A stretch of 64,000 nt of DNA from Amphiscolops sp. MND2022 (taxonomy: Eukaryota). Shown here piece by piece: positions 3,311 through 62,956 of this stretch; the first letter of the stretch is position 1; the number at the start of each line of letters is the position of its first letter. A program made the position numbers and the translations under genes. The stretch is taken from assembly GCA_964187785.1 (NCBI GenBank), contig OZ076409.1:63676001-63740000 (forward strand), read 5' to 3'. The notes below the pieces were generated by a model. The model made no database searches and was not told where the DNA came from. It worked only from the letters and a program-made list of their open reading frames with translations.

Positions 3311-3353
3311 AGTATCAGTTTAACTGATAATAACAAATTAAATCAGCTTACAA

Positions 3354-8842: not shown

Positions 8843-8853
8843 GGAAGGGGGAA
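8843..8853 (+). promoter_or_regulatory. Polypurine tract of element C
   Basis: GGAAGGGGGAA immediately before the 3' LTR. Confidence 0.9.
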
Positions 8854-11841: not shown

Positions 11842-12040
11842 CCCACCCTGTTTACTACAAGCCAATACTCGTGTTTATCTTGAGCAGTCTTTTATGATCA
11901 TCTTGACCCGCAAGTCGGTGTTCCATTGCATAAAGTAGTCCTCTACTTGCTGTAATTTATTCCAATTTATTTTTATGAAACCGTTAATTACACTGCAAGA
12001 AGGCTCTACACCTTGCAGTGTGATGAAACCACACCAACAT

Positions 12041-23473: not shown

Positions 23474-23700
23474 TTAGAACATGTAAATTCACTGGCCCGA
23501 CTCAACACCTTTTGACTCTACAATTATCTTTTTATGGGCCTCGACTGACTTGTAGTCCACAATAACAGATCAAACACAAGCATCATAATGACACAACTGT
23601 ACAAACAGACTTCAAATAACGATAAAATAAAAAACTCAAGACTGACAGACAAACGAAAGATACATAAATACAACTAAAAACAAATGTACATATAGTACAA

Positions 23701-26700: not shown

Positions 26701-28232
26701 AAAGGCTGACTCTCAAGGTCAGAATGTTCATAAGCATACCCTATGCTGGCAAACTCATCATCGCTCCTTAAGGCTCCACTGGTATCGCTAGCCTCTCCAG
26801 ATAACAAATCGGATTGCACCCCAGGACTTTGAGTCCGGTAACTAGATCTCTTGGGGGTGACTCTGCCTGATGGAGGAAATTGTGGTGTTCCAAGACTCAA
26901 TCGGCACGTCTGATGAACCAGGTTCTCCATTGCCTTCAGAGAAGACCTAACTGCTTCGTCAGCGACGACCCTCAGAATGTTGCTGACTTGACTCTCATTA
27001 AGGGCTAAAGTTGTATGGCCCGGCGGTAGCATTACTGGAGTCACGGCCTCAAAGCATTCTTTTATCATAACGCGGCTGCTTGCTGAAAGTTGGGGACTTC
27101 GCGTCGCCTCCTCTGGAAAATCCACGGATGTAACACTACCTGCGTCACTGACTCTCAATCGACTCTTGTCCAAAGGAGCATACAGAGCATCCGCTACGGT
27201 TGAGCCAGCAGGACCAGCTGACTCATGCCCGGTATCACTGGCAAATCTATCGGAAGGCACACGTGGACTAGCGACAATTGGGTCGTTTGATCCAAATTCA
27301 TCCGTCGAACTAAGACAACCCTCAGAGTGTGATGAACCTTCTGTCTCAGCATTAGATATGGAAAGCTCTTTTCTAGTCTCACCGATTTTGACGCAGAGTT
27401 TTTGAATCTTCGCCTCAGGTGGCTTATACATCGATTTGAGGTTGCTCTTGATAGGGGCGACAGGGGAATCCAAGAAAGCGACCCTTGATACAGAGTCCGA
27501 ATCGGTTTCAGTGTGGTCTGGTGCATCTCGCTGTGGCATCAACTCTAATGTGATGCTCTCACTGCACTTGCCCAAGTTGCCGTCACTTGGACCTTGGGTA
27601 CGATCTTCGAGAGAATCGCCTAACTGTTGCCATTTTCGAGCTATGTATGCCCCTCAACTCTCGTCAGTGCTGCTGCTTTCCACACCGACAGTTGGTACAA
27701 CGGTCTGTGGAGTTGTTGGCGGTTCAGATTGATTGCATAGCTGAGGATGTTTGCGGCATTACAGTTAGATCCTTTTCCTGCACTTGTTCGGATTCTTTTG
27801 CCTGAGAGCCCTCGGGAATGATTGTAAAATCCATCTCCGTAACAGTCTCGGATCTGGCCGGGGTATCCGTTTGAAGAGTAGCTTCCTTTTGATTGCAGTT
27901 TTGATCACTCAACAAAGTGGGGCTTTCAGCGTGGGGGGATGCAGTCACAAAGGACTCGCTGGTCTCCATTCTTTCTTCCTCCGCATTCAATTGGAGAGGT
28001 TGGTCGTTGAACTCATTATCTAAACGAAATGAGATAAATAAGCGCGGCTCACTTCCTGAATATGAATCCATCTTAGCGCTTTGAACAAAATACTTCCGGA
28101 AGTTCCTTTGACATAATGTTCATACTGTATGTGAACATTTCACGATGGAGGAAGTGACTTTGTTAAAATTAAGAGCCCTGATCAAGCCTAATTTTAACAC
28201 ATTTAAAAGAACCAACCTGACGCTGAATCCAT
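23701..28232 (-). pseudogene. Antisense spliced accessory gene of A (BED-type Zn finger, hAT-transposase-like), disrupted. Predicted exons 28232-28217, 28019-25831, 25742-25257, 25187-25053, 24983-24902, 24830-23701
   Basis: GT-AG introns at the same positions and phases as in B; internal exons 486, 135 and 82 bp in both; CQIC...RHHGTEKH finger. Lesions: frameshift near 27740, TGA at 27654-27656, 98-bp tandem duplication at 26517-26714. First mini-exon less certain (alternative ATG at 28071). Confidence 0.8.
26517..26714. repeat. 98-bp tandem duplication frameshifting the antisense gene
   Basis: Two adjacent copies with period 98; removing one puts ORFs 27575-26547 and 26556-25804 in one frame. 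Confidence 0.92.
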
Positions 28233-28847
28233 GAAGGGTTGGCGGAATTGATGAGATCCTTTTGACACTTGCACTATAAGGAAATTGGATGTTTCTGCAG
28301 CAATGTCCAAATGGTGATTGCTTCAATACCCACTCAAGAGGAAGATGTAACTGTTGCTGGGTACTCAAGGCCAGTGGAGTAAAATTAGTTTTGCTGCCCA
28401 CGAAGAGGGTTGATAGTGTCCAAAATAGAAATCGACAATACAAAATTATGTGATTGGAAGTATAGCTTAAGTTATGGAATGTAGCGGAATCACTAGAATT
28501 AGATTACAGAAAATCAGTGTGCGACTCAAGGTCAGAGAGACTATATAGATTACAAGGTAATGCTGTATAGCTCAAGTGATGCTGCTTGAGAAGACAATAA
28601 TAAACTGAAAGCCAAGTTAGTGCTGAATACTGTCTGGAATGGGACTTAACGTCAACTTGACGGCAGTGTATTACTAGTTCACAATCAAGTATTATTTAAC
28701 AAGTACTTACGAATTGGACGATGAGTCATCATGACGGCACAACGTTACTTGTTACCAAATGTGCTTTATTTCACTTCCTCTACTCAACAACTACTCTTTT
28801 GACTAATTATTACCTCCTACCACTAATTTAGAGTCCCGGACTTCTTA

Positions 28848-28951
<104 letters not shown>

Positions 28952-29583
28952 GTTACTTGGATGTCGTGGCTACATGTAAGACTTTCTTTTATGTTTCCAT
29001 CTTCTCCTTTCCTTTAGTCATGCTCTTCATTCACAGTACATGGTATGGAACCTGCCAGTGAAATATTCATGCACTCCTAACTGTTTCATTTTAATTCTTT
29101 TCTTTCCCCTAAAAAGGCATCGATTTCTTTATTTCATTTCATATTCAAAAAGTTATTAGTCGTATTTTACCAATCAATCCAGCGTCATATGATTGGTTAT
29201 CATCGTTGCTGCCGTCGAAAGGACCGCCGGTCTTTCAAGTTGATTGTTGACAGAAAATTAAGAAGAACAACACTTGAATTAGCAGGCAACTCCTTTGAAG
29301 GAGTAAGCAAACCCTCTATAAGTGGCAATTAAAATTTTGTTATAATAACAACAAAACAGGCTTTGGCGGTCTCAATGAAAGCAAGAAACCTAAATAAGGA
29401 GAGTTTGGGAGAATCTAGCGGGAATGGTACCTTACAATTACCCCCGCCAAATACGAAGGCTGACCTAAGGTCAACTGGACGGCATAACTTCATTCATCGC
29501 CCTAACAATTTCAAAACCAGTAGACTGCTTCTGAACTGCTCAAAATTGCACGAAAACTGTTTCTATCACGTTATTCACGAGAA

Positions 29584-30387
29584 ATGTCTTTGCAGTTTAA
29601 CACTGAGGGTATAAATGGACCATTAGTGAGTCTTTCCTATCGATCCTCTGATGAAGAAATGGAAGTAGATTCCATCTACTCAGTACACGATAGCGACGAT
29701 GACGACATTCAAGTCATAGCCTGCTACTACGAAAATCAGGAATTTCCACCACAGCTGACGGCAGGTAGAGCTATGACTACGGACTTGTCTGACTGCCTCG
29801 GTTACTTAAGCTTACCGGAAACCACTTCGGAAAGCTACTTTACCGAGCCGACGGAAGAGCTTATCGATTGGTTCGTCGGAAGTCCACCGTCAACCTACTC
29901 CGGGGTACAGCCACAACAACATCCTATAGCTCAATGTAGTCAAATTGACCCATTGCCTTACTCGCCATTATCGCCGCCACTGATCGATCAATTCCCCAAC
30001 TACGCACCAAGGGTCAACGATCATGAGGTCCAAGAAGAGCCGCAATGGGCTAGGAACCAACACATCACTGGCCTGGGCATCAGCGCAAGCGGACTATGCG
30101 GACAGCCCAATGACGTGCTCTACGGTGGTTGTGTTGTCTGCGGGAAATCGTTCCAGGCAATAAAGGAAGAGGTGACACTCGGCTTTCTAGAAAGTACTCA
30201 TGTTCCTGGAGAGACGTACGAACAACGACAAGCGAGACGGCGAGCCTTCGAAGCTGGAATGAAAGCCGGATCTTTCATTGTCATCCCCCGGGGAGTGTCG
30301 CAGGCGGCCGCCTGTGACGGAATATTATACCAAGTTGGACCCGAAGACGATGACACTAATCCCGGACCGGGCGTTTTGCCTATTTGA
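29584..30387 (+). CDS. Sense accessory ORF of A (267 aa), ends 92 bp inside the 3' LTR; function unknown
   Basis: Intact ORF homologous to 46785-46000 (SPxSPP, GCxVCGxS, AxExGxxAG, VSQAAACDG, PGxLPI). Exact start uncertain. Confidence 0.85.
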   Translation: MSLQFNTEGINGPLVSLSYRSSDEEMEVDSIYSVHDSDDDDIQVIACYYENQEFPPQLTAGRAMTTDLSDCLGYLSLPETTSESYFTEPTEELIDWFVGSPPSTYSGVQPQQHPIAQCSQIDPLPYSPLSPPLIDQFPNYAPRVNDHEVQEEPQWARNQHITGLGISASGLCGQPNDVLYGGCVVCGKSFQAIKEEVTLGFLESTHVPGETYEQRQARRRAFEAGMKAGSFIVIPRGVSQAAACDGILYQVGPEDDDTNPGPGVLPI

Positions 30388-31798
30388 GAGAAAAACTCCG
30401 CAATACGTTAATTATTTAGTTAACAATCTTCTCATGCACTTTAGTTCATTCATTTATTCTTATTCATCTTTACATGTAAATATGAAGTCTTAATAATGTG
30501 ACTCAAGGTCATTTTGACGGCATGAATAATTATATTTTGATTCAATCTTATGTAAATTAGTTGTTACACCACATTAATAATAATAATGTGAACTAGTACC
30601 AAAAGGTGCAAAACGCTGTACAAGCAGTTAATTTGATTGACGTTAATAATAACAATAGAAAGCAAGATGACTACTCAAGTGAAAGGAAACGCGTTCAACT
30701 GGTACGCTGCTGCCGTCTAGTTGACGCGTAGTCACTTCGCTTCTAACCAATCACGGCGCTACATTTAGTTATAGTTCAATGCCGTCATGTGGACGTTAGG
30801 TCCAATTAGTTAACGCATGTAGTATTAAATCTGTAGTTGCATGAAAATCACCGCTAACATGTACCTGTTATTAACCAGTATGTTGCTTCTATTTATAGGA
30901 CCTATGACGTGTAGTCATATGTCACCTCCGTTGCTATATTTAGAATTGTGATGTAATAGTTATTTTTAATAATGATGTCATTACTATTTTTACCCAATGA
31001 CACCCTAAATATTGAGTGTCATACTGTAGTTGCTATATATATGCAAATTTCCAGTAAGGGATTGATTCATTGTGATAACCTCAATACAAACCGTTCTGAT
31101 ATACACTTTTGATTCGACAATCTATTATTGAACAATACCTTCTTTTGATATGCCTTCAACTAGAAGACAAAAGGCGAAAGAGAAACGTTCAAGACAGTCT
31201 GACATAATGTCTGATATTGAAAATCTAGATGTGATGCTCGGAAATTACTCAAACAGTGAAATTAGGGACCAAAACACGGTAGACCAAATAGAAATTGACC
31301 CTGAGTCAAGTAGACGGCAACAAGGTTTCAGTCATGAAGAAGGTAACTATAGATCTCTTTTGAACACAAATTTGAGTGAGAATAGTGAAATTACAGTAGA
31401 AACTAGCAGAGCAATTAGTTCGGAAATTTCGTCGCAGATGTCAAGGAAATTGGAAGAAATGAAATCTGACTTAAATTCCCATATTATGGAGGTAATAAAC
31501 TCTGCTATTGATGAAAAAATACTACCGAGCATCGAAAATGTCATAGTAAATCACAGGGAGTGTAAAAACGCGAAATTGGACCTTCGGTCAGATGGACGGC
31601 ATCCGAGTAGAAACGTCCCTATGGACCATACTTTGGACCTTGGGTCATATGGACGGCATAAAATTAAATTTGGCCAGCAGGTCCAGGACTCAAGAGAGAA
31701 TTTTCCTAGACTAAGTAAGACAACAAATAACCTTTCAAATCATCAAATGGAATGTTCGGGAGATTCTGAACAGAGTGAAAATGATGAAGGTTATGACA
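30296..31798 (+). repeat. 3' LTR of A (second copy of the gag 5' end from 31150, reading into flank to 31854)
   Basis: Direct repeat of 15643-17145 followed by TSD CTATA. Confidence 0.97.
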
Positions 31799-41803: not shown

Positions 41804-42234
41804 CAGCCTTGTGCATATTAGTTCCATCACTCTGTCAAATTAGCTCTTGGCTTCAATAAAAACGGATTGTTTTGGGCGTCCTCCCTGGTCTCCGCGAAGG
41901 CGACAGCGTACCCACCTTCCGATAATGCGAAATAATATTGGAAATGGTTCTTTGTGGTACTAATACCATTTTCGAAACTTGCCATTGGCTATATTTTTCC
42001 CGCGTTTTTTGAAGGATCAATTTTCTGACACATTCAGACACTGTTTTGCCTGGCATGTTTGCTTTACTAACCGCACAGAAATTCAAACTGACAACTTGGT
42101 GGAAAGCAACAGTGTATGTGTTGTTGAAATACAAGGAATTTAAATGTTCGGCGTGAAATCAAAACGTGAAAAAATTAAATTAAATATAGTGTGTGAAAGT
42201 AGACAAATGATCGAACAAATATGCACAAGGGCTG
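41804..42234 (-). mobile_element. Internally deleted Tc1-like DNA transposon (431 bp)
   Basis: TA on both sides; imperfect ~33-bp TIRs CAGCC(C)TTGTGCATATT...; retains the transposase N-terminal HTH (MPGKTVSECVRKLI...SRRPGRTPKT). Confidence 0.85.
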
Positions 42235-44218: not shown

Positions 44219-46088
44219 TGTCGTAAGCACGAGAGTTTGTGCTTGTGAGTCCGTCTTTGGAACGGTCATTGGTTTGTTTGTTCTTAGAATTGTTCCTAGG
44301 TTCTAAGTTTTGCAGTACTTCAGAATATCCTTCCGGTCTCTCATCCGGAACGTTCCATCTCTCTCTGGTCAATTGTCCCGATCCGACCAAAACTGCATTT
44401 AGGATTTGAGGCAAAATTTGACTACTAATTGCCTCATTTATGGCCCTTTGAATCTGAACACTGACGCTACTCATCATTTCATCCATCTCTCGAGATATAC
44501 GTGAATTTAAGTCACTCGACAATCTATTGATCTCAACGCTTGAACACTCCCTGATCGAATTATGGCCTAATTCGGTATTTGGACTTGGTCCGTTATTTCT
44601 TGGATTCGGGAACCCATTTTCATTTTCATCTCCAAATTCATCTCCAAACAAGCTTTCTGGCCTACCGGCTTGATTACTATTCACACTTTCATTTCTCTCA
44701 TTTCTTTCAAAATGGTTTTCACCTAACATAATGTCCAGGTTTTCAATATCTGATAACATGTCAAGTCCTCTAGACTTTCTTGCTTTCTTTTGCTTTCTAG
44801 TGGTAGGCATCAAGACAGAACCGGGTTGAATAATTCAATTATTAAAACCGGAAAACTGACAAAAGTCGTTGTATTATTTCGATCTTTATCAAAGTGAGGG
44901 TATGAGATTAATGATCTTTTTACAAGAATATGGCTATATATACTCGTAAAAGGATGACACTCACATTCCATAAATTCTTTGATCAAGAAAAACATCACAT
45001 GACTATGGCTTCAACAGGTCATTTGACAAATGCTATTTCCACGTTAGGTAAGTTATTCAGCACTTCAAAGCGGATACTTTAGGGTGATGTCCCGATTAGG
45101 GAAATTCCTAGTTTCGGGGTAGCCCTTAGGAATTCAACATCAAAGGAATGCTATTTAAAAGTATACACAAGCAGCACCTTCAAGTGTCGTGTTTACAAAC
45201 ATCATCAACATCATCCTGTCAACAAATACCAATGTCTATTGAAGGAATGCAAAAGGCATCTCTTTGGAACGTACTTGTGACACGCGCTACCACGCGCCTA
45301 TTATTTAACGTAAGTGGGGACTAGATTAAATACTACATGATCAGTTCTGCTTAAAATACTACAGCACTATTAAAATAACACACTTTCTGGCAATGCCGAA
45401 AATGGACAAAATCCGGTTTACTAATACAGCACTATAATAAAAGAGGGCAAAAGCCTTATTCGGCTTTTGAGTGATCACTAAGTTTATTAGGCTCATTGCA
45501 CGGTGTTGGTACTTTCATTCGTTATTAAGGGTACATTTGCAGTAATACACGATTAGTACACTCAATTAACACACATATAAGCTATTCCAATGGAGTGGCC
45601 GGAACCGGCCGTTTGACTAAAAGGCACAATTATTGAGTCAATTGGCCATACTCGGCCACTACATAATCGGAGTGGTATTACTTATAGAAAAGGAGCATTG
45701 TGATTGGTTAAGGAGTTGAGCTCAAGTGACGTCTCCGGAATAGGAGTTTCGTTCACTTGAACTCGTTTCCTTTCTACTGCACAGCTACATTGTCACGTAT
45801 TACGTTTACAATAGCAACGCATCTTTCAATCTTCTGAAGTTACAAATACACTATTTGAATCTTCAAATGTAACTTTTAACAGACTAATTTTACATGTGCA
45901 AGTATATATATATATATCGGAGCTAACAACATCAACAAATATATTACGTATTGAATAACAAAACAGTATGAAAGTTCTAAGTTTGTAGGTTATTCCAATT
46001 CAATAAATGGGTAATGTTCCTGGTACAAATTCTTGTCCGGTTGCCGAGGTCGTCACACTTGTACCGTCACAGGCGGCAGCCTGCGACA
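44219..46088 (-). repeat. 3' LTR of B (1870 bp); gag 5' copy from 44810 reads into flank to 44097
   Basis: Minus strand TGTCGCAGGCTGCC...TTACGACA; about 15 substitutions and a 4-bp TA indel versus 58568-60433. Confidence 0.95.
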
Positions 46089-46785: not shown

Positions 46786-47703
46786 GATGACTTTCTTCGC
46801 TATTTTGAAGCTTGTGGATGCAACTGTATCGTGATGAAGTTTTAGGATAGAATGAATTTGTCAAATCCAAAATTTAGTCGAGTAAGGTGTTTTCCCGAAG
46901 TTTCCAATTTGGCGGTTAGACCTTCGGTTAATCGTCCTGATCTGTCATAAACTTTCCAGAATGGAATTCCTCAGCTTGTCGGCTCCCTTTGATAACATGA
47001 TGTTTACCCCTCATCAGTGTCATCACTAGAAGAGGTGTGAATGACTCTCAGCTTATGAATATCAACTACACCCGTCTCAAGTGGGTAATTAACGGGTCGC
47101 TTGCAAGCAATTAACGGCGCTTGTCGGATAAAACTCACTGAAATGGCTTCAGCCAATCAAATTTGAGCTTCGATAAAATTGGAAAATTGAATAATAAAGA
47201 TGGCGTAAAATAATAATTTTGAATAACTAAAATGACGAAAATAATAAATCTAAATAATCCAAGATGGCGAAAATTCTAACTAAGGGAAACTAGGGTATCT
47301 GGACGTAATGGCAAAACGAAGTAGGGCAAGCGGCCGTAACCGGCCTCTAACTGAATAAGCTGTAACAACTAACGCTCTTTGTACATTTCGCTGGCAGACT
47401 CCATGTACATTTTAAATATGTAAATAATCAAACAATATTAGTCTGGTAAATCTCTTCAGCCACGAACTCCAACTTTCCAATTCTTTTATTCATTTTTAAT
47501 TCCATTCCAATTCTATTTATATATCAATTGTACCCCTTACTGGGATCCTCCCGACTGGTATTCATCTTCCCTTTGTCTCTAACTCTGCTGTCGATCCCCT
47601 CTGTGCAGCACTAGGGCCCTTAACTTCAGTCCATCCACGGCCATTTCCTTCAGCTTCTTTCGCCCTACGAGAGCATTTATTGCACGAATATCATCACGAC
47701 AAC

Positions 47704-50700
47704 ATGTCTTCCAATCCAGGTTGGTTTGATTTTCTCTTTCTTTCAAACAAGCTTAGCTTGATCAAGGCTAAACATTGTTCACATGACGCTTCCTGTTTCC
47801 ATCAACTAGACGCGTGAAAGCACGCTTCATTCAATTTTCAAGACACTTCCGGAAGATTTCCAACGCGGTAAAATGGACACTTTTCAAGGAAGCATACCGC
47901 TAAACTTTATCTCTTTTCGTTTAGATAATCAGACTTCTGAGATTGAAAACGTACCCAACCCTTCTGGACTGCCGCAAACAATTTCCAATGAAGGTACAGT
48001 TCCGAGTGTGGCGGATATCGCCAAGTCTGCGATTTCTCCCCAAAGTGTCGAAAGTGAGGTGGACGTGAATGCCTATGCAGAAGCTAAAGTACAAGAGATG
48101 GAGGTCGAGCAGAGTCAAATGCAACAACGATCACCTTCCAGTGATCTCAATTTGATGACGACCAACCCCGAGGCTTCCACTAGCACCTATGTTCCCCAGA
48201 GTTTAGTCCCAGTTCGGTCCAGTACCCCAATACCGGTAGAGACTGCTGGAATATCCCAAGCCAGCTTGCACACATTAGAAGCAGGTCTAACAGTTGTAAA
48301 CAACCCTGGGTCCCAATTACCTGAGCTTCTTCCTGCCACTGAAGTGGGGACCGTTGTTCCGCCAGTTAGGAAGACCTTGGACGATGAGGATGGAGAATCT
48401 TCTGTCTATGAAGTTCCTATGTTGCCCACCCAGGAACACAAAGTCCGGTTCTTGACCGACTTGAGTGAGGCTGAGAAAACAACCGGAGAGGCGAGCAGCA
48501 CTGAATGTCCTTCACTCTATGGGGATATTCCCGGGATGTCCGAATCTGGAGGAGAGACCAGTGAATGCCCTGACACTACCGTCCTTAGACAGCACCAGAC
48601 CGACCCACAGGCGTCCACTTCTCAAGGCTTTGACATCCAACATCCTGAACTCTCTGGAAGGGCGCGAGCCATACTGAAGACTTATTTCGATGAGACGCAT
48701 GCTTTTCGGTTCCCGCCAGGACAAACAGCAGTTGCCTTCACAGAGTCTCAGGTATATCACTTGTTACGCGTCTTAACTGACGAAACGCTTCGGATGTCAT
48801 ATTCTACCATGGAAAGAATGATTCTGGATGCAGTCCGGGGTAGTCCTACAGTCGCCCCATCACGCACTGACCATTTCAAATCAAGGACCAGAGCGCAGAC
48901 CCCTTACAGGGAACCTGATAGCGACTCCAGCGACGCCGAGACCGGAGACTTGCCGACTACGGATTCTGAGGGACATGACACCATAGACCGGGGTACACTT
49001 GGCGACTCTTCCTCATTTGGAGAAAGCGACAGTGCTGGCGAAATGGCCTTGATTTCGGCTTCTTTTAAAACTTCAGCCATAATTACAGACGTCCCAATTG
49101 TGTCACCTACAGAGCAGCTAGGAGTCATACAGACTGGTAGTCAAGAAACTGACCGAAGCAGTCAGGATATCACTTTATCTGAGGTGAGAGAACAGTCACT
49201 CCGATCTAGGCCCAAGTCAATGAGTAAGAAGGCCCCGAAGACTAAGAGACCACCTCAACGTGGAGTTCCAATGCGCGAGGAGTTCTTCGCAAAAATTGGT
49301 TGGACCCGGTCGTTCATCTCCGGGCCAGCGGACCCGATCCACAACCCCTTCATGGTCTGGTGCCACATTTGCAAAAAGAACTTCTCCATTAGAAGTAAGG
49401 GGACAATGGAGATACTCAGGCACCACAGGACCGAGAAGCACCTTAGACGGGACCAGAGATGGAGGTACGAGCATCTGAAAAGTACCGATCCAGTTACACT
49501 CAAGACCCAACACTGAGTCCGAGGCAGAAATGGGAAAATCTTGAGCAAGATAGAACTGGCCAAGGAGCTCCCCAAGTTTATCCATGTGGATTTAGTGGAT
49601 ATCGGAGAACGTTTTCCTTTCTACGAGGACTTCATTCGAGGTAGGACTACTCCCTTGGTTACTCCCGAGTCCCGAGCAAGAACTCAGCTAAGCATGGTAG
49701 CTGATTTCATCCAGAGCTATGGCGACATCACCGTCCTCCGGAGCATGTGGGCCAAGGTCAGTTCCGTTACCGACCATCAGGCTTCCCTTTGCGACTTCGA
49801 TTGGGGAGAAGAGAGGATGACTGTAAGTATTATTTGCTTTCCCTTCTCACAGGACCTTCCCCTTTCTAGGTTGTTATCTTTTGGCTTGTGTCCCTTTTAG
49901 GCAATATTCCAACATTTCTTCAACTGTGCCATGAGTGACGTTGCTGACCAGATTTCCACCCTGCAATGCTTTGCCTTGGAATTTGAAGACCAGGGACCCA
50001 ACCGATTCATGTCCGTGAGGTTCTGGAAGGGTCAATATCTTTGCAAAGTCATTGCTTGTCGCAGCAGGCTACCTACCACTGACCTCACCGGAGAGCTAGG
50101 TTCCATGGCGCGACTCTTGTCTGCAATCTCGACAAAGGCGGACATAGTGGCCTGTTCTGGGTGTCCGGCCGATCTAATCCGGACCATAGACGAGCTCCCA
50201 ACTTCGGCGCGGGCTGTACAGAGCTGCTTCAGGTTCAACCAGCTCAACCTGTCCAAGTTGATGCACAAGAAGAACTACAGTGTCTTCGGCCACATAGACT
50301 TCTTCTCAGTGCTACGCGGCTTAGTCATTTCCCTGGGTGGGTTGACCGATGAGGACTGGATACTACGTAGTCCCGAACTGGCCAAAGTAAGTGGGTGCTC
50401 GTTTCATTTTGTAGCGCTAACTCGTACTCTTAAGGGTTTCTAGACGGGTTATTACAGTGGCTCCGCTTTTCCTTTAGGCTATTTCCAAGAGCGATCTAGA
50501 CATGTCTACACTGCCTGCTCTGTGCCAAGAACTCATGGACGAGTGGAAATCCGTGGTCTCTTTCCTCACCGAGCACTCTCCCAAACAACTAGGCCAGGGA
50601 GTTAAAACTAGAGTAAGTGTCTCAACTCAAGTTTCGTCTTTTCCCATTAGACGCGGAGATCTTGTAGTTACACCGTAAACCTTTTGTTGCAGGTTCAGAG

Positions 50701-51998
50701 CTTTGAATGGTCGCTCATTTGTGATGAGTTCTTTCCAGTGAAGTTGGAATTCTTCTATCACCTTATTAGTGATTGTTAGTTTGTTTTGATAGCCTGGGGT
50801 TCTTCTTTTGGACCATTACACCTAAGTATCTTGTGTTTTAGACAACTCTAGCTTCTCTTCCAACTTACACAAGAGACGTGATTCTTGCTTCTATCTTTGT
50901 GGGGAAGTTGCCCGTTACGTCTACAGGCTGTGCTTCCGGTGTTATGCTCCTGATACCATCCCTCTCGAAAATTCATGGTTCTTGCTTCTAAACTTCCAAA
51001 CCAGTGAGGGGGCATTTCTCCCAGTTGATGAGTTCCTCACTCGGCTGAACATGAAGAACAAAGTTGCCAAGGCCAGTAGGCAAAAATCGGAAGGCATCCA
51101 TTCTGGAAAGAAATCTGACAGGGCCGCAGTGCAGAAGACCGCAGAAACCATCAAGAATGATTTCGTCCGAGATTGCCAAAATTTCATCCAGTTCCTGATA
51201 GGGGGTGTTCTCCACCAGGCCGGACTCTGCTCTAATCTTGTTCGTGGCCTTGCTGCTTTTGACCCTTATATAATGGTAAAAAGGCCCACTGAAGTAGCGC
51301 TACGTCACTTCGACTTATTATATCGGACCTTTCAGCTCAGGTCTTGGGTCAGTCTAGCAAATGAGTCTGCCTGTCGGGACGAGTACGTGGAGTTATTGGA
51401 CCACCTCAAGGCTTCTTCTCTTCCTTCATTCGATGTTAGCCAGGGATCACCGGATCTTATAGATTTTCTTGTCAATCTTGACTTTATGCAGGAGCATAGT
51501 CGTCTGTTATATCTATTCAAGTTGAGTTGTTTATGCATTACGTCTGAAAGTCCTCAATACCCAACAGTACGTATTGGAACTGCCAACACTACAAGTCATC
51601 AGAACAGACTCACAGACGTGGTTTTACCCGTCCAGAGCTATCTGTCAGGGGTTCCGGACTCCACTGCCTTCTGTACCAGTGATTCTAGTTTGGCTAAGTT
51701 TTCTTTGCTTTCTGCCTCCTTCAGTCAAACTGTTTCATCCGCCTCATACGACCCCTGGACTTCCGTTGACGAGTTTGGTAGGAATCGAATTTACAAGTCC
51801 CTTCTTACGTCATATCGTTCTGCCCTTTCTGGATTAGGTGGAGTGGGCCTCGATGAGACAACGTCTTCCAGTGTTGGTGATATGCCTGCAGTAGTCCCGC
51901 CCGGTGACCGTAAACGGAAGCGCATGGAGAGGAGCAGATCCCGCTCGAGAGCCTCATCCGTCGCCAAAGAGTCTCCTGCCGGTTGTTCTAATTACTAA
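47704..51998 (+). pseudogene. Antisense spliced accessory gene of B (about 1257 aa, one in-frame TGA at 49514-49516). Predicted exons 47704-47719, 47925-49822, 49901-50386, 50478-50612, 50693-50774, 50842-51998
   Basis: All junctions GT-AG and in frame; peptides align with A across junctions (ERMT/AIF vs ERLS/VLF; TLPALCQEL vs TLPTLCQEL; D-Y-NSSF vs D-Y-TTSF); finger WCHICKKNFSIRSKGTMEILRHHRTEKH. First mini-exon less certain (alternative ATG at 47873). Confidence 0.82.
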
Positions 51999-52236: not shown

Positions 52237-55200
52237 TTAGTATCTGAAGTCTTCTGAGTAGTTTGGATTAGGGTTAGGCCTGAGATTATATTTCCCTCCT
52301 CTAGAGCTCAGACTTTCATTTCTAGCGTCGCTTTCAGATATTTCGGGCACGATAATATCATCCCCCCTTTTTGGAGAGGTTTGTGCATCGTTTTCATCCA
52401 TCGAATTTCTTTCTGAAAAAATTTCGTCATTTTCCGGCCCAGCTGCCGTATTCGGCAAAGAATTTTCTTGGTTTTTTGGGAAAACGGCCGGATTCGGCCA
52501 ATCAGATTTGGTATTTTCTGTCACTGCGGTAGCTTTATTTCTTTTAGTGACGTCATCATTCAATCGTTCATCTCGGCTGTGCGACGCACGATCGGTAAGA
52601 TTTGATTCGTCACTCGTGATTACATAATCCACTTCATTCTCGCTTGCGTCACTTGCATTCGCTTCTGCCGTACTCGGCTGTTCGTCATTCGTCAAGCTGG
52701 CCGGAATAGGCTCGCTGCCTCGTGTATCTAGCTGTTCGCCAAAGTTTGTTTCCCACGTTATTACATACAAGTCGTCTTGCGGAATGATTATTTCGTTATC
52801 CGGCTGTAGACGCTGTTCTCGGAAATTGTCTTCAAGTGGCTGATTTGGAACAAACTTTTTGAGACGAATTCGATGCAAGATCTGCGTTTTATTTGTATTA
52901 AGCCTGCGGACAATGTAATTCTCATTAGGTAAGGTCTTCTGGACTATAAATGGTCCAACCCAGCGATAATCCCTGAATGGAATTTTTGATCCTTGATGAT
53001 CCGCCTTCGGTTGTAATACAAAACAGTAATCGCCCTCTTTGAGTGGGGCGGCTTTTGCTTTTCGGTCGTAATACTCCTTATATTTGATATATGACTGCAT
53101 GATGTTCTGCTTTGTTTTGTCAATAAGGAGTTTGGTCCGGTTCTGGATTTCTTCTGCGAATTCAGTAGTCGGATGGATTGGTTCATTTGGATTCATTCCA
53201 AGTTTGTGATCCAAGATGTTGTATGGGATTCTCCCATGGAACACTCTTGTGGGTTCGCATCCGATACTGGTATGATAACTAGTGTTATGATTGAGAACTG
53301 CTAAAGGCAAATATTTATGCCATTGTCGGCGATATTCCCCACATGCCATTTTCAGGTTCGTTTTCAATGAGGCATGTGTTCGCTCTAATTTTCCGATAGT
53401 TTGCGGGTGTTTCGTCGTTGCACATTTTAGGGTAATGCCTAAAATCTGTGTAATTTCCGCAATGATCGTGGAAGTAAAGGCAGTTCCTTTGTCCGTAATT
53501 AGCGTCGTCGGTAGGTAAGAATGTTTGGTCATAATATCTATGATTGCTTTAGCTACATTGATCGCTGATGCGTCCGTAAGAGGATAAGCAAACAAGTATC
53601 GAGAGAAGACATCAATTGCGGTTAAAATATTTTCGTATCCTCCACTTGGGGGAAGATTCGGCAATAAGTCGATTTGCATGGCGTCTTCGGGTCCAAGGTC
53701 CCATTCCGGCAAGTTAAGTAGTTCAGGCGTGATTGTTGCGTTTGGGACTCGTTTGTATTTTGCACATTGTTCACACCCTTCTACCCACGTTTTGACATAT
53801 TTTGCCATGTTAGGGTAATAATACCTTTGTCTGGTTTCCTGCAACATTTTTGAAATTCCGGGATGTCTATGCGCTGTCCCGTGAAGGGAGTGGAGCAATT
53901 CCCGAAGTAGGTGTTGCGGGAGCAAAATTTGATGGTATTTAACATTCCCTGTTTCATCAAAATATTGCCTTGTCAGGATTTCGTCCTTTAGTACAATTCG
54001 TTCCAGATTATTTGCATAATGTCTATATCGGGCATCCTGTTGCAGTATGTTTTCTGAATAGTCTTCATGAAGGAGCTTTGCCTTCAATTGTTGCAATACT
54101 GCATCTTTGGACTGCTCGATGATTATCTGGTTTGTTTTCTTTAATCGGACTTGAATGTCTGGTTGTTGTTTGACCAGGTTGGTTGACAGAGTTTCTATGG
54201 TAACAGTGGGTTCATCAATCATTGGATTTTTCCTGATTGCTTCTTTTCTTGCCCAATACTGTTCCTCTGTCTCGTCGTCATCATTCGTATAGAATATTTG
54301 TTCTTCCTGTGATACCCCTGCAGATTGAACATTGATTTCAATTGGTAGAGTTTGTACGTCCTCACGGATCTTCATGACTAATTTGTCCTTTGGATCTGCC
54401 TCTAATCGGGACAAATAGTCAGCTGCTGTGTTCTGTGCCCCCGGGATATGCGCTATGACAAAATTGAACTGAATCACATAATCGCATGCATTCCACAGGG
54501 CTGGGGGTATTATTTTCGTTTGAAAGAATCTTGTTACTGCTTTGTTATCGGTTAGGATTATGACCGGTTTGGGCGCTCCCCAGAAAATATGCCCAAATTC
54601 TTTGAATGCGAAATAAATCGCAAGAAATTCTTTTGCATAAATTGACATCTTTATCTGGGCTGGGGTGAAGGTTTTTGAACCATAAGCGACCGGTGCGTAT
54701 GATTTGCGGATTGACGTGAATTTCTGACTCGGGTCATCTTCAATGAGTATTGCGTATCCTGCAGCTCCGAAACTTGCATCTGTCATGAGTGCAATCTGCT
54801 TGTTAGGAATGGGTTGTTGTAAGGCTAAGTCGCAACATTTGTCCAGAGCTCGGTTGATTTCCTCAAATTGCTGTACTAATTCTCTTGACACTAGGACTTT
54901 TTCGTCACTTTTCAGCATCTTGTAGAATGGAGCAAGGCGTTCGGATAGTCTTGGGACATAATTCCTGTAGTAGTTCAAGAACCCCAAGTAGCGCTGCAAA
55001 GCCTTTTTCGACTTTGGGAATTTGGTCTTTTCCAGGAAGTTTTGCACGTTCTGCTTCTGGGGTTTGACGCCTTGCGGGGTAATAGTCCGTCCGAGGAAAT
55101 CAATTTCTTTTGCACCAAAGTGGCATTTGTGCATTGTCAACTTAAGGCCTGCTTCCTGAATGCATTTGAAGGTTGCTTTCAGGTTCATTATGAGGTGGTT

Positions 55201-57444
55201 AACATCATTGGCTGCGATGCCGATATCGTCCTCATACTGGGCGCACTGATCCGCTTTAATGACCTTGTCGAGGTATTCCCTCATGAAACTCGAGAATGCG
55301 GATAGTGACCGACTGAGGCTTTGTGCCAAACGTCTGTAGGCAAATGTGCGACTGGCAAAATTGAAAGCTAACATTTCGATTGAGCGTTGGTCAGCCATTG
55401 GTAGGCAGTGGTATGCCTGCGAACAGTCTAATTTACAGAACAGTTTTTTGCCTGCCAAGTGTTGGGCGGCATCAACTAGGGTGCTAACAGGGTGATTATT
55501 GTTTATATAATCATCCGAGATGAGGTTGTTGATTTTTCGCAAGTCAACCAAGAGTCGTAGCTTCCCATTTGGTTTCTTTTGGGCGAATATTGGGCTTGCA
55601 TACTTTGAGAACGGTAGGGTGGTAATGATGCCATATTTGTGTAACATGGCTAATTCGACTAAGATGTCTTCCTTCAAGTTGATAGGAGCCGGAAGACTTT
55701 GACTATAGGCTGGGGAATCGTCTTTTGGTGTCAGTTTCACCTTGAAGTCCTCGTTCATGCCAATATCAAATCGGTGTCGTGCAAAGATGTCATGGAATTC
55801 CACTAACAATTCCTCTATTTTCTCCTTCTCTTCAGGAGTAAGGGTGGAATCTTTCCAGTCAAAGTTTTCTAAGAATTTTGCACGTGATTCTGCGTCTGTG
55901 GTGGGGTCGAGTGTCTCCAGGTCCTGTAAGGCCTGTAACTCACGTAGGATCCGTTTTTGTATGGGTGTGTGTTCCTCAGGATTTCCAGGGTTTTCTGGAG
56001 TTGGGAACCAGTAATTTTCGGAGTTTTGTGGATTTCTATTGGTTTTGATGAGACTGCTGACATAATGGGCCGCTTGCTCCTGGTCATTCTGCAAAAGGTG
56101 CCAGGTTGATGCCGGGTCTACCGGTTTGACATACTTCATTTGTTCTGGCGTCATGACAGAGAAATTGGCAATATGTAGTCCCTTTTTGAGTTTATAAGGG
56201 TGGTCTGTGAAATTGTTCACTGGAATCAATATATTGCCGTCATTCAGAGTGACCGAGGCTGGGCAAAATGTAATGTCGCCTTCTTCATGTAGAAGGTCGC
56301 TCGGTTGCAAAATTCCAGTGACAGTATTCTCAGGGTACAGTAGGGAATTGGTCCTGATTAGGACTCTATCGTTTGGCGGAATGGTTATCTCAATGGGATT
56401 GAGAATTGGTTCTAAGACATTTGAGTATTTTTGGTCGGCTGTTTTTAGTTGCATTGAAAAGAACGGGAAGTTCAGGATTCCTTGTCTCATGTCCAGAACT
56501 GTATGGTTTCTCTGCAGGAACATCAGTCCAATGATCGGTCCTGTCAAATGTTCCATGACTATGAAAATCTCATGAAACTCAATATCACCAACTTCAAATT
56601 TGAGTTCTATGGTACTTTTAGGGGTTTCCAGTTGACCATTAGCGACCATTATTTGGAAATTCGGAGGTGCACCTTCTCGGATAACAGATTGTGGAGATAA
56701 AAGGCGGATTTTCCGGAGGTCCATTTCGGGTATTGCACTGGACAGCGCTCCAGTGTCTATTAGTCCATCAATGGTCAATTCCCCAAAGTCCATTGGGAAA
56801 TAAAGCATGCGTTTTTTGCATTTGAGGTTGATGTTGGTTGACAGGGGTATACAGTCTGGTTCACCATCTCTGGTGATGAGTACATTTTGGAATTGTTTTT
56901 CATCTAGTAATGATTGTGGCATGATTTCACCACTATTTTCAGTATTCTCGGTCCCCAGGGGGTTTGGGAACACCGGATGGCTTGTGCCATCATTCATTTG
57001 CCAGGTTTCAATCAATGCTCTAGTTTTCTTGTTGTGGGTGATTGGAGGATTTTCATGGGCTGATTTATTGTAGAGTTCGATATCATCAATGACGTATTGG
57101 AATTGTAGCAGATCTTGGTTGTAGAGTTCCGTGCCCCAATAGGGATCTCGTCCATAATCGGGGTCTATGTAGGTAGGGTTGTAATCGTCTACCAAGGGAA
57201 TGGGCCTGAATCGGCTATTGAAAGCAGATGTGTAATCAGGATCCCATACAGGAATTGGTTTTTGGAACAGATGGGTATTATTGTAAGTAATAATGGTAGC
57301 TTTTTCCATCTGCTGCTGCCAGACAACAGAAGGATAGCCCATCAATTGTTGGTTGTATTGGTGGAAAGTTTGCGTTGGAGGGTCCGATCTGATGTATTGT
57401 CGGACAGAGACTAGTTGGTCATAGTGGAGTCGTGGCGAAGCTAG
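52237..57444 (-). CDS. pol: Pol of B (PR, dUTPase-like, RT, RNase H, IN), expressed by -1 frameshift; RT motif reads YEDD
   Basis: Frame open from the slippery site to the stop at 52237; LIDTGA, TDAS, HHCC/DDE and GPF motifs; strongly similar to A Pol. Confidence 0.93.
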   Translation of the reverse strand, partial: LASPRLHYDQLVSVRQYIRSDPPTQTFHQYNQQLMGYPSVVWQQQMEKATIITYNNTHLFQKPIPVWDPDYTSAFNSRFRPIPLVDDYNPTYIDPDYGRDPYWGTELYNQDLLQFQYVIDDIELYNKSAHENPPITHNKKTRALIETWQMNDGTSHPVFPNPLGTENTENSGEIMPQSLLDEKQFQNVLITRDGEPDCIPLSTNINLKCKKRMLYFPMDFGELTIDGLIDTGALSSAIPEMDLRKIRLLSPQSVIREGAPPNFQIMVANGQLETPKSTIELKFEVGDIEFHEIFIVMEHLTGPIIGLMFLQRNHTVLDMRQGILNFPFFSMQLKTADQKYSNVLEPILNPIEITIPPNDRVLIRTNSLLYPENTVTGILQPSDLLHEEGDITFCPASVTLNDGNILIPVNNFTDHPYKLKKGLHIANFSVMTPEQMKYVKPVDPASTWHLLQNDQEQAAHYVSSLIKTNRNPQNSENYWFPTPENPGNPEEHTPIQKRILRELQALQDLETLDPTTDAESRAKFLENFDWKDSTLTPEEKEKIEELLVEFHDIFARHRFDIGMNEDFKVKLTPKDDSPAYSQSLPAPINLKEDILVELAMLHKYGIITTLPFSKYASPIFAQKKPNGKLRLLVDLRKINNLISDDYINNNHPVSTLVDAAQHLAGKKLFCKLDCSQAYHCLPMADQRSIEMLAFNFASRTFAYRRLAQSLSRSLSAFSSFMREYLDKVIKADQCAQYEDDIGIAANDVNHLIMNLKATFKCIQEAGLKLTMHKCHFGAKEIDFLGRTITPQGVKPQKQNVQNFLEKTKFPKSKKALQRYLGFLNYYRNYVPRLSERLAPFYKMLKSDEKVLVSRELVQQFEEINRALDKCCDLALQQPIPNKQIALMTDASFGAAGYAILIEDDPSQKFTSIRKSYAPVAYGSKTFTPAQIKMSIYAKEFLAIYFAFKEFGHIFWGAPKPVIILTDNKAVTRFFQTKIIPPALWNACDYVIQFNFVIAHIPGAQNTAADYLSRLEADPKDKLVMKIREDVQTLPIEINVQSAGVSQEEQIFYTNDDDETEEQYWARKEAIRKNPMIDEPTVTIETLSTNLVKQQPDIQVRLKKTNQIIIEQSKDAVLQQLKAKLLHEDYSENILQQDARYRHYANNLERIVLKDEILTRQYFDETGNVKYHQILLPQHLLRELLHSLHGTAHRHPGISKMLQETRQRYYYPNMAKYVKTWVEGCEQCAKYKRVPNATITPELLNLPEWDLGPEDAMQIDLLPNLPPSGGYENILTAIDVFSRYLFAYPLTDASAINVAKAIIDIMTKHSYLPTTLITDKGTAFTSTIIAEITQILGITLKCATTKHPQTIGKLERTHASLKTNLKMACGEYRRQWHKYLPLAVLNHNTSYHTSIGCEPTRVFHGRIPYNILDHKLGMNPNEPIHPTTEFAEEIQNRTKLLIDKTKQNIMQSYIKYKEYYDRKAKAAPLKEGDYCFVLQPKADHQGSKIPFRDYRWVGPFIVQKTLPNENYIVRRLNTNKTQILHRIRLKKFVPNQPLEDNFREQRLQPDNEIIIPQDDLYVITWETNFGEQLDTRGSEPIPASLTNDEQPSTAEANASDASENEVDYVITSDESNLTDRASHSRDERLNDDVTKRNKATAVTENTKSDWPNPAVFPKNQENSLPNTAAGPENDEIFSERNSMDENDAQTSPKRGDDIIVPEISESDARNESLSSRGGKYNLRPNPNPNYSEDFRY

Positions 57445-59159
57445 TTTTTTGACTCATCATTGGAAGATGAGGCATGTGAGTTGGAAGATGTTGATTTGTT
57501 TTGTGGTTTCTGCGCCTTTGAGTTGGGTTTGTCGTCATTAGCGTCATCTGGTCTGGTGCGTTTGGGTTTGAGATGCGCACCAGCACCTTGCCAGCATCTT
57601 TCTTCCGGATGGTTCTTTTTACCACAAGTGCCACACTCCGGATACGTCTTTTTCTGAGTTTGTTTGCCTTGTTGGGCATCTTTTTCCTTTTTCTTCTTCA
57701 ATTTTTCACAGTCTTTGACCATATGGCCCTTCTCCTTGCAATAGTTGCAGGTGATGTCCGACATTTGCCCAGTAGTTAGAGGAGTCTTGGATTTTGTTGT
57801 CGGGGAGGTCATTGTGGCCATTGGTAGGTCGTCTGATTCTTCAAGGGCATTTAATTCTAACTCTCTCTCTAAATGAGCAACTATTTCGTCATAAGAGCCG
57901 TTTTCGAGTCTGGCCATGTTTACGGACCGCTTCAGTTTTGGTGGCAGTTTTGCGTAGAGCAAACTGTCAATCATTTTCTGTGCGTGATCTCCGAATGCTT
58001 TTTCTGCCCCTTGATTTAATTCTTCAAGGAAATCTGGCAGTTTCATCGTGTTGGGATCGAAGACTAGACGGTGCCATTTATGTTTGGCAGTTGCCTGTGA
58101 TTCAGGTTTGACGTATTTCCGTCTGAATATTACCAATACGTCTTCTAAAGTCTGTCTATTGCTCGAGCTGATGTTCCGGAAGGTTTGAAGAGCATTCTTC
58201 CTCAGCAGTGAGTGGAAGTGATTGATTTTCATCTGTTCCGTCATTTCCGGTTGCATCTTGATCATCGTGTGGAACAGGTCCTCGAACAGCTCGAATTTTT
58301 CACTCTTGCCATCAAAAGTCATTGTATTTGAATTGACTGGGCGTATAGTGAGTTGTTGGGCTGTCGGCCTATTCTGCATCGTTGTCAAGACATCTGCTAG
58401 TCGAGTAATAGGGTCAGTTTGAGTAGCCGGAGCATTTCTCTCTTGCGCTGGGATCGTCGTGTCAAGGTTAATATCCTCATAGGACCTGTCGAGATGGTTT
58501 CTGGATGAGATTCGTCCCGTGAGAAACTCAGGAACTTCGATTGGAGATTCGTTTTCTCCTGTCACCATGTCGTAAGCACGAGAGTTTGTGCTTGTGAGTC
58601 CGTCTTTGGAACGGTCATTGGTTTGTTTGTTCTTAGAATTGTTCCTAGGTTCTAAGTTTTGCAGTACTTCAGAATATCCTTCCGGTCTATCAGCCGGAAC
58701 GTTCCATCTCTCTCTGGTCAATTGTCCCGATCCAACCAAAACTGCATTTTGGATTTGAGGCAAAATTTGACTACTAATTGCCTCATTTATGGCCCTTTGA
58801 ATCTGAACACTGACGCTATTCATCATTTCATCCATCTCTCGAGATATACGTGAATTTAACTCACTCGACAATCTATTGATCTCAACGCTTGAACACTCCC
58901 TGATCGAATTATGGCCTAATTCGGTATTTGGACTTGGTCCGTTATTTCTTGGATTCGGGAACCCATTTTCATTTTCATCTCCAAATTCATCTCCAAACAA
59001 GCTTTCTGGCCTACCGGCTTGATTACTATTCACACTTTCGTTTCTCTCATTTCTTTCAAAATGGTTTTCACCTAACATAATGTCCAGGTTTTCAATATCT
59101 GATAACATGTCAAGTCCTCTAGACTTTCTTCCTTTCTTTTGATTTCTAGTGGTAGGCAT
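57441..59159 (-). CDS. gag: Gag of B (first 197 codons inside the LTR)
   Basis: Intact ORF from the ATG at 59159; capsid region nearly identical to A; knuckles CNYCKEKGHMVKDC and CGTCGKKNHPEERC. Confidence 0.95.
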   Translation of the reverse strand: MPTTRNQKKGRKSRGLDMLSDIENLDIMLGENHFERNERNESVNSNQAGRPESLFGDEFGDENENGFPNPRNNGPSPNTELGHNSIRECSSVEINRLSSELNSRISREMDEMMNSVSVQIQRAINEAISSQILPQIQNAVLVGSGQLTRERWNVPADRPEGYSEVLQNLEPRNNSKNKQTNDRSKDGLTSTNSRAYDMVTGENESPIEVPEFLTGRISSRNHLDRSYEDINLDTTIPAQERNAPATQTDPITRLADVLTTMQNRPTAQQLTIRPVNSNTMTFDGKSEKFELFEDLFHTMIKMQPEMTEQMKINHFHSLLRKNALQTFRNISSSNRQTLEDVLVIFRRKYVKPESQATAKHKWHRLVFDPNTMKLPDFLEELNQGAEKAFGDHAQKMIDSLLYAKLPPKLKRSVNMARLENGSYDEIVAHLERELELNALEESDDLPMATMTSPTTKSKTPLTTGQMSDITCNYCKEKGHMVKDCEKLKKKKEKDAQQGKQTQKKTYPECGTCGKKNHPEERCWQGAGAHLKPKRTRPDDANDDKPNSKAQKPQNKSTSSNSHASSSNDESKN

Positions 59160-60433
59160 CAAGACAGAACCGGGTTGAATAATTCAATTATTAAAACCGG
59201 AAAACTGACAAAAGTCGTTGTATTAATTCGATCTTTATCAAAGTGAGGGTATGAGATTAATGATCTTTCTACAAGAATATGGCTATATATACTCGTAAAA
59301 GGATGACACTCACATTCCATAAATTCTTTGATCAAGAAAAACATCACATGACTATGGCTTTAACAGGTCATTTGACAAATGCTATTTCCACGTTAGGTAA
59401 GTTATTCAGCACTTCAAAGCGGATACTTTAGGGTGATGTCCCGATTAGGGAAATTCCTAGTTTCGGGGTAGCCCTTAGGAATTCAACATCAAAGGAATGC
59501 TATTTAAAAGTATACACAAGCAGCACCTTCAAGTGTCGTGTTTACAAACATCATCAACATCATCCTGTCAACAAATACCAATGTCTATTGAAGGAATGCA
59601 AAAGGCATCTCTTTGGAACGTACTTGTGACACGCGCTACCACGCGCCTATTATTTAACGTAAGTGGGGACTAGATTAAATACTACATGATCAGTTCTGCT
59701 TAAAATACTACAGCACTATTAAAATAACACACTTTCTGGCAATGCCGAAAATGGACAAAATCCGGTTTACTAATACAGCACTATAATAAAAGAGGGCAAA
59801 AGCCTTATTCGGCTTTTGAGTGATCACTAAGTTTATTAGGCTCATTGCACGGTGTTGGTACTTTCATTCGTTATTAAGGGTACATTTGCAGTAATACACG
59901 ATTAGTACACTCAATTAACACACATATAAGCTATTCCAATGGAGTGGCCGGAACCGGCCGTTTGACTAAAAGGCACAATTATTGAGTCAATTGGCCATAC
60001 TCGGCCACTACATAATCGGAGTGGTATTACTTATAGAAAAGGAGCAACGTGATTGGTTAAGGAGTTGAGCTCAAGTGACGTCTCCGGAATAGGAGTTTCG
60101 TTCACTTGAACTCGTTTCCTTTCTACTGCACAGCTACATTGTCACGTATTACGTTTACAATAGCAACGCATCTTTCAATCTTCTGAAGTTACAAATACAC
60201 TATTTGAATCTTCAAATGTAACTTTTAACAGACTAATTTTACATGTGCAAGTATATATATATCGGAGCTAACAACATCAACAAATATAATACGTATTGAA
60301 TAACAAAACAGTATGAAAGTTCTAAGTTTGTAGGTTATTCCAATTCAATAAATGGGTAATGTTCCTGGTACAAATTCTTGTCCGGTTGCCGAGGTCGTCA
60401 CACTTGTACCGTCACAGGCGGCAGCCTGCGACA
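58568..60433 (-). repeat. 5' LTR of B (1866 bp), also serving as 3' LTR of the adjacent partial copy
   Basis: Followed on the minus strand by PBS TGGTGACAGGAG (58567-58556) and preceded by the accessory ORF of the next copy. Confidence 0.95.
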
Positions 60434-62953: not shown

Positions 62954-62956
62954 CCC

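Follow-up and report, generated by a model that had tools for sequence, protein, structure and literature searches.

The 64,000-nucleotide window analyzed here (Amphiscolops sp. MND2022, assembly GCA_964187785.1, contig OZ076409.1, positions 63,676,001 to 63,740,000 of the forward strand) comes from a 1.07-Gb animal genome with Wnt genes and contains two related Ty3/gypsy long terminal repeat (LTR) retrotransposons, elements A and B, in opposite orientations. Each carries a large gene antisense to gag-pol, located in the stretch that separates pol from the 3' LTR and lying tail-to-tail with pol; this gene has six exons (table 1) and, in B, ends 239 bp from the pol stop. Both elements encode gag and pol, the latter with protease, reverse transcriptase (RT), RNase H, and integrase in that order (Pfam), and the RT is nearest in the PDB to foamy (1e-27) and Ty3 (4e-25) sequences. 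The LTRs end in TG...CA, and 5-bp target duplications flank four of the six copies examined, the remaining two having an extended left end.

Table 1. Features of the antisense gene and of the two retrotransposons in the window (positions are those of the window).
Feature	Position	Strand	Remarks
Exon 1 (ATG, 16 nt)	47704..47719	+	In-phase ATG in 31/32 copies: 28 at -16 and 3 at -67 from donor (longer exon)
Intron 1 (205 bp, phase 1)	47720..47924	+	Probably alternative; second in-frame ATG at 47873
Exon 2	47925..49822	+	Long N-terminal part evolving fast; basic patch; C2H2 zinc finger at 49361-49441; helical part, conserved
Intron 2 (78 bp, phase 0)	49823..49900	+
Exon 3 (486 nt)	49901..50386	+	Predicted helix-three strands-helix-strand; putative RNase H-like start of hAT-type catalytic domain; no Asp at expected sites
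Intron 3 (91 bp, phase 0)	50387..50477	+
Exon 4 (135 nt)	50478..50612	+
Intron 4 (80 bp, phase 0)	50613..50692	+	Precisely absent in some families
Exon 5 (82 nt)	50693..50774	+
Intron 5 (67 bp, phase 1)	50775..50841	+
Exon 6	50842..51998	+	Predicted all-helical domain resembling C-terminal part of hAT transposases, basic tail, stop
Element A homologous antisense gene	23701..28232	-	Exons 28232-28217, 28019-25831, 25742-25257, 25187-25053, 24983-24902, 24830-23701; second ATG 28071
Non-coding region between the two divergent accessory genes	46800..47703	.	Candidate internal two-way promoter
ORF3, sense accessory open reading frame (ORF), 261 aa	46000..46785	-	CxxC motif; runs into 3' LTR
Element B pol (protease, RT, RNase H, integrase; 1738-aa frame)	52237..57453	-
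Element B gag frame	57441..59183	-	Zinc knuckle; starts within LTR; contains primer-binding site 58556-58567
Element B 3' LTR	44219..46088	-	TG...CA, about 1.87 kb, 99.0% identical to 5' LTR
Element B 5' LTR	58568..60433	-
Element A	15643..31798	+	1.5-kb LTRs 99.8% identical, 5-bp target duplication, gag, pol, antisense gene, ORF3 (29584-30387)

The five introns proposed in a first-pass annotation of this DNA hold at the proposed lengths and coordinates in both elements (for A, 197, 88, 69, 69, and 71 bp), as do their phases of 1, 0, 0, 0, and 1 and the lengths of 16, 486, 135, and 82 nt for exons 1, 3, 4, and 5. The gene of about 1250 amino acids that was proposed with them agrees with our B model of 1257 codons but is interrupted in both window copies: B has an in-frame stop at codon 536 (49514-49516) that is private to one of 20 close copies, and A is disrupted by a stop together with a duplication of 98 bp, so that neither copy encodes the full protein. 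We fetched 30 copies spanning the range of identity: in 12 of them the spliced frame is open as far as the homologous stop, and in 27 the exon lengths of 486, 135, and 82 nt are preserved.

The case for the introns is comparative and draws on aligned genomic copies and on outside homologs. GT and AG occur at the aligned positions of 95 of 100 introns in 20 B-clade copies, with the five misses confined to three copies that have a broken frame, and of all 50 introns in 10 A-clade copies. In 36 further copies, 184 of 188 splice sites are kept (acceptor 2, 36/36; donor 3, 34/36; acceptor 3, 36/36; donor 4, 21/22; acceptor 4, 21/22; donor 5, 36/36). Set against background rates of 5.7% for GT and 7.4% for AG, this conservation is far above chance. 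Introns 2-5 vary freely in length, often by numbers of bases not divisible by three, and their conservation is lower than that of the adjacent exons; the splice dinucleotides persist across diverged families while the intron lengths shift. Variants in which an intron is missing mark the same boundaries. In 14 of 66 copies intron 4 is missing with base precision, and exon 4 continues in frame into exon 5 with a gap of 0; in five outside homologs exon 2 is joined to exon 3 without a gap at the predicted intron 2 junction, and in three of these five the alignment ends exactly at the intron 3 donor. As aligned, these natural intron-less variants confirm the predicted junctions, and we consider it almost certain that the antisense gene is coding and spliced. 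Two other candidate variants were rejected: a family with an 847-aa open frame appeared intronless, and its frame reads through an in-frame intron; L099, a candidate for intron 2 loss, carries an imprecise deletion.

It is an established principle that introns lying antisense are not spliced from the genomic RNA of an element, and the first-pass annotation had proposed that orientation shelters the introns of this gene. Retention agrees with the proposal, given that an exact-motif scan of the genome found 343 places with intron 2 and none without it. The shelter is not absolute, however, as shown by the precise loss of intron 4 in 14 of 66 copies. The intron-4-less copies are nested within the B clade, and the intron is present in basal B copies and in all A copies, so that its absence represents loss; on the tree this loss maps as two changes, and a single clade is rejected (p 0.007). 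Orientation as a cause of intron retention is known in principle, and our data are consistent with it. Precise loss could have occurred by recombination with spliced mRNA or by deletion between short end repeats, and under either route the joined form corresponds to the selected protein.

A survey of further copies, suggested with the first annotation as a check, found the antisense gene behind pol in the same position and orientation in all 67 copies examined beyond A and B (20 + 11 + 36). All 20 copies picked by their integrase carry it; these are 20 of 150 matches listed, all of them 98-100% identical to B, with distant pol lineages outside the sample. The family is very large: a first look at the genome returned 6340 and 6494 exon-3 candidates and 23463 integrase candidates, with 150 of each scored. 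Full-length pol frames occur in many genomic copies among the matches listed.

The ratio of nonsynonymous to synonymous substitution rates (dN/dS) between families is 0.10 (dS 1.09) and 0.06 (dS about 2.4-2.5), with values of 0.02-0.07 when the least saturated pair is compared over its conserved part, and in one pair of antisense genes 289 of 394 differences are at third positions. The A and B proteins share 30-32% identity. A direct A versus B ratio, which had also been suggested as a check, was rejected on account of saturated dS. Among 20 B-family copies, the corresponding polymorphism ratio (pN/pS) is 0.08 for changes found in two or more copies versus 0.40 for private changes (p 3e-15), and all six stops are private. 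This pattern is that of selection on transposing lineages followed by decay after insertion, and we are highly confident that only lineages with a working gene spread. Together with the integrase-picked copies, these values sustain the earlier view of long-term selection rather than a recent passenger.

Trees of the integrase and of the antisense gene have the A/B split in common and disagree within the clades; tests of this discordance for groups chosen after viewing the trees gave approximately unbiased (AU) p values of 0.07 (not rejecting), 0.001, and 2e-5. In a genome where hAT elements are abundant, the gene could be imagined as a nested, independently mobile DNA transposon or as a neutral passenger, but this is very improbable in view of its constant position behind pol in 67 of 67 copies, the deep A/B split common to both trees, the lack of Asp at the expected catalytic sites, and strong purifying selection.

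The disagreement within clades is matched by mosaic copies. DNA identity falls sharply at the pol end in some families; in L035, L038, and L028 the integrase DNA is 94-99% identical to that of B and the antisense gene 53-71%, and another family has 90% of the LTR in common, yet its antisense gene is no closer. A search for strict co-travel of the antisense gene with the LTR was negative. From these alignments, the antisense cassette evidently recombines between families. The mosaic copies argue against strict family-specific LTR recognition by the antisense protein, and, given their mixed pairing with integrases and LTRs, any tight partner specific to one family becomes somewhat less likely. 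They bear in the same way on the proposal that the protein is an integration or nuclear-import cofactor that tethers the cDNA-integrase complex to chromatin: a transposase-derived DNA-binding fold with basic patches would fit such a role, as would the presence of the gene in 20 of 20 integrase-selected copies, but near-identical integrases (DNA 94-99%) paired with antisense genes at 53-71% make a tight partnership unlikely, and we consider the role improbable.

We also think it unlikely that the gene provides a counter-defense or RNA-level factor, that is, one that blocks small-RNA silencing or exports the genomic RNA, or that the antisense RNA itself regulates. The gene diverges faster than pol and its cassette is swapped in the manner of arms-race modules; convergent transcription with pol could yield duplex RNA, and precedents are discussed in passages of PMC7264820. 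The core nevertheless shows no excess of amino-acid change, and a version based on the RNA alone conflicts with the observation that constraint sits on the amino acids of the antisense frame, with mostly third-position differences (289/394 in the one pair).

Intron 1 differs in its pattern of conservation. In diverged B-clade copies, with one non-homologous copy set aside, it is conserved above the start of exon 2 (0.73-0.92 vs. 0.48-0.72), and its last 52 nt, which contain no stop, open with an ATG that shares the frame of exon 2 in 31 of 32 copies. The synonymous share in this 52-nt extension is 0.46-0.58 in frame versus 0.00-0.34 in the five other frames, and distant homologs start with the same peptide as the second-ATG form. 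The simplest reading is that the protein would have two N-terminal forms. A palindromic CTTCCGGAAG, which we take to be ETS-like, lies in intron 1 just upstream of the second ATG (47846-47855), and the motif is present in 17 of 22 copies.

Upstream of the gene, AAGATGGCG, presumably YY1-like, occurs at 47198-47205 and 47262-47269, and such motifs are found in 11 of 11 B-clade versus 1 of 11 A-clade copies. ORF3 (260-275 aa) starts about 900 bp upstream of the antisense gene and runs in the divergent direction; both clades have kept it, at about 27-30% identity and with a third-position bias, and it has no Pfam match and no known family. A transmembrane-type stretch is absent from ORF3, where the maximum 19-residue hydropathy is 1.47 in B and 1.10 in A; the antisense protein, with a maximum of 1.44 and no env match in Pfam, likewise does not resemble an env gene. 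The antisense gene and ORF3 are placed as if they shared one internal two-way promoter.

In the antisense protein about 450 residues evolve fast; its other parts are a basic patch, a C2H2 finger, a core that is conserved, and a basic tail. We folded two parts of it separately, obtaining a mean predicted local distance difference test (pLDDT) score of 52 for the middle model and 66 for the exon-6 model. Foldseek places Hermes transposase first for the middle model, with E 4e-3 and prob 0.72, and Hermes fills 9 of the first 11 rows; residues 216-310 of this model align to Hermes 142-264 (Z 3.0, root-mean-square deviation [rmsd] 4.8, 90 residues); in the wide VIA structure search, Hermes is not among the 50 rows listed for the middle model. 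For the exon-6 model, the alignment with Hermes stands at rank 4 and covers Hermes 376-604 over 151 residues (Z 5.8, rmsd 6.2); Foldseek gave no match for this model, and Hermes is also not among its Foldseek rows. In the Atlas language-model search, exon 6 retrieved hAT-dimerisation clusters at ranks 2-3 (0.91), and the middle part gave no usable match. The predicted domain order is colinear with that of hAT transposases, and, because individually weak signals agree and fall in order, we consider an origin of the antisense gene in the hAT superfamily probable on these models. As to origin only, the gene might instead be a captured host zinc-finger gene that resembles the Hermes fold by chance. 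Such a capture would accord with the negative outcome of every sequence-level hAT test and with weak structural scores, but not readily with both separately folded halves picking Hermes in the correct order, with a language-model search that indicates hAT too, or with 67 of 67 copies sitting in the retroelement, and we judge it rather unlikely. Canonical hAT transposases are common in the same genome.

On the predicted strands, the first catalytic site is occupied by Glu or Val/Ile, and no Asp is found on the fourth strand in either register (register set by eye). The hAT transposases have CxxH and final Glu motifs; in a by-eye reading of the alignments these, together with a conserved ERxFS, are absent from the antisense protein. 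The catalytic acids appear to have been lost, and the protein presumably could not cut DNA. Among the 25 longest inverted-repeat pairs of 55 in B and 42 in A, none brackets the gene in B and one 17-nt pair of 76% identity brackets it in A, although old repeats may have decayed. Three ENA proteins (P0336, P0343, and P0243) are distant homologs that lack intron 2 and keep the position of intron 3. The best match of P0336 in this genome is 28-37%, and the lack of a close match here suggests that the gene family extends to other hosts. A profile search retrieved 1014 representatives at E 0.001; scans of Joint Genome Institute (JGI) metagenomes and a search for longer relatives of P0336 found nothing.

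We propose that an ancestor of these Ty3/gypsy elements acquired a transposase-like gene, probably of hAT origin, in reverse orientation behind pol; as with the origin itself, we hold this capture to be probable. The reverse orientation would have kept the introns from being spliced out of the genomic RNA, by the established principle, such that they were copied along, as their retention bears out. The gene would be transcribed from an internal promoter region in common with ORF3, the two lying back-to-back, and splicing would give two N-terminal forms. With the catalytic acids lost and the zinc finger, core fold, and basic patches kept, we lean toward a nuclear accessory factor that binds DNA and determines the element's transcriptional or chromatin state, with an activator or anti-silencing role more likely than that of a repressor. 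Inserted copies decay, and spread is confined to lineages in which the gene works. The whole chain, from capture to nuclear regulator, we favor only slightly. In its fullest form, it would have a retrotransposon domesticate a hAT transposase, introns included, as a catalytically dead DNA-binding regulator, in a complex, retrovirus-like cassette that shares an internal two-way promoter with a second accessory gene, has five spliceosomal introns, is swapped between families, and occasionally loses an intron via the element's own reverse transcriptase; this version we offer tentatively and with some doubt.

Several observations count against this explanation. The antisense protein has no Pfam match and no PDB sequence match, and hidden Markov model (HMM) and HHalign comparisons with this genome's own hAT transposases gave no significant score. 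No Foldseek row falls below E 0.001 for either model, the mean pLDDT of the middle model is just 52, the VIA Z values are within the range of common arrangements, and the Atlas feature overlap of 140-144 (below 170) and recognition of 2029 (below 2300) are low. As the mosaics demonstrate, no single LTR or integrase is tied to the gene. Splicing, protein, and binding rest on sequence comparison and predicted structures, and the evidence fits either sign of regulation and either a DNA or an RNA ligand.

The two elements have further structural peculiarities. A 4.39-kb repeat was considered as the LTR of B and rejected, the real LTR being about 1.87 kb. In both elements gag starts about 600 nt within the LTR, and the primer-binding site lies inside the gag frame (58556-59183 in B, 16479-17157 in A). 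Element A has a dUTPase-like domain between protease and RT (19301-19543, Pfam 1.5e-05); at that position Pfam finds no match in B. In the B copy of the window, the motif at the RT active site is YEDD (pol, about 55200-55250). The right end of B is canonical, and its left repeat extends 2.5 kb beyond the LTR start (60434-62956); the element as a whole is flanked by a 3.44-kb direct duplication of 99% identity (40778-44218; 62957-64000 plus L047 1-2397), an arrangement that resembles one-ended integration accompanied by a giant target duplication. Another copy of the B family also has its left end extended, and shows neither TG nor target duplication. Before the 3' LTR, B-clade copies have no purine-rich tract, and A-clade copies end in a G-run (46089-46110 vs. 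30274-30295); the purine-tract site and the LTR start both fall within the coding sequence of ORF3. Weak plus-strand priming could give rise to the extended left ends. Elsewhere, the window contains a related family's solo LTR, which has a 5-bp target duplication (9929-11841), a decayed unrelated LTR element with 180-bp LTRs (3121-9034), and, between the elements, AT-rich dispersed and tandem repeats of about 55, 126, and 153-187 nt (12040-13900, 36580-36990, 39670-40240).

The antisense multi-intron gene is real, lineage-wide, and under selection, and it is surprising for its intron count, its size, its animal host, and its probable origin. An element that is copied through RNA can keep a multi-intron gene over long periods, and ORF-based annotation of transposable elements would overlook such genes. 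If the hAT origin is true, one transposon class has domesticated the enzyme of another. What antisense extra ORFs do in LTR retrotransposons is described as an open question in passages of PMC7264820 and PMC11963269; with many diverged families, a recognizable fold, and natural intron-loss variants, the question becomes testable in an animal, and the intron-4-less families provide a natural case for how introns get lost.

In the literature searched, with subscription papers, Repbase, and supplements outside its scope, we found neither a multi-intron antisense gene nor a hAT-derived gene described for an LTR retrotransposon. Animal LTR elements have accessory genes in sense orientation behind pol. 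In passages of PMC4402516 the Oikopleura Tor env is such a gene with an internal promoter, and in passages of PMC5408684, where the word "intron" has no occurrence, the bdelloid ORF3s are lineage-specific captures in the same place. The CERV of Caenorhabditis elegans Cer1 is likewise an extra gene behind pol. Unlike these, the gene described here is antisense and has multiple introns, and the passages on Tor and bdelloid ORF3 mention none such. ORF3 of the present elements, which has no transmembrane-type stretch, is set apart from env-type accessory genes.

The best structural match of the antisense protein, though below threshold, is Hermes, and the putative likeness would extend to a zinc finger, an RNase H-like core, a helical insertion, and a C-terminal segment, predicted in that order. 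Domesticated hAT derivatives include the ZBED and DREF types. Unlike hAT proteins, the antisense protein has no detectable sequence match, including to PF05699, and no Asp at the catalytic sites, and it would have been domesticated by a transposon rather than by a host. The VANC proteins of plant VANDAL DNA transposons are, in passages of PMC13547354 and PMC12859917, element-encoded, sequence-specific anti-silencing factors with a MAIN-related fold, and the likeness to them would be one of functional analogy only.

Among deltaretroviruses, passages of PMC10186651 describe HBZ of HTLV-1 (a human T-cell leukemia virus) and APH-2/3/4 as antisense genes with spliced and unspliced forms that differ at the N-terminus and act as nuclear regulators; for HBZ, a 31-kDa bZIP protein with a promoter in the 3' LTR, the role of DNA-binding regulator has been demonstrated. 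The gene analyzed here, known from genomic sequence, is similarly antisense with putative N-terminal variants. It differs from HBZ in that its first ATG is 1.6 kb from the LTR, in the internal region, and in its five introns and unrelated fold; a bZIP match is absent from the antisense protein (Pfam).

The closest parallel in arrangement is provided by plant Retand elements, which are defined by antisense ORFs behind pol in passages of PMC11963269, PMC7264820, PMC6317226, and PMC4093653. Among the Retand/Tat examples given there are Grande gene 23, RIRE2, and the common-bean ORF2, and the Grande ORF has its own upstream promoter. The word "intron" does not occur in PMC11963269, PMC7264820, and PMC4093653, and PMC7264820 calls in one passage for a search for antisense spliced transcripts. 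The present gene resembles the Retand/Tat ORFs in being antisense, between pol and the 3' LTR, and lineage-wide (67/67 copies), and differs from these plant-only genes in its animal host, its five introns, its length of about 1250 aa, and its divergent sense ORF. A match to PF04195 (TRP28) is absent from the antisense protein in Pfam, which places it outside the Retand TRP28 family. For the Retand ORFs, these papers report predicted DNA binding and a TRP28 "transposase 28" domain, and PMC11963269 proposes a role as DNA-binding regulators; by analogy, the antisense gene of the elements described here may function in a similar way.

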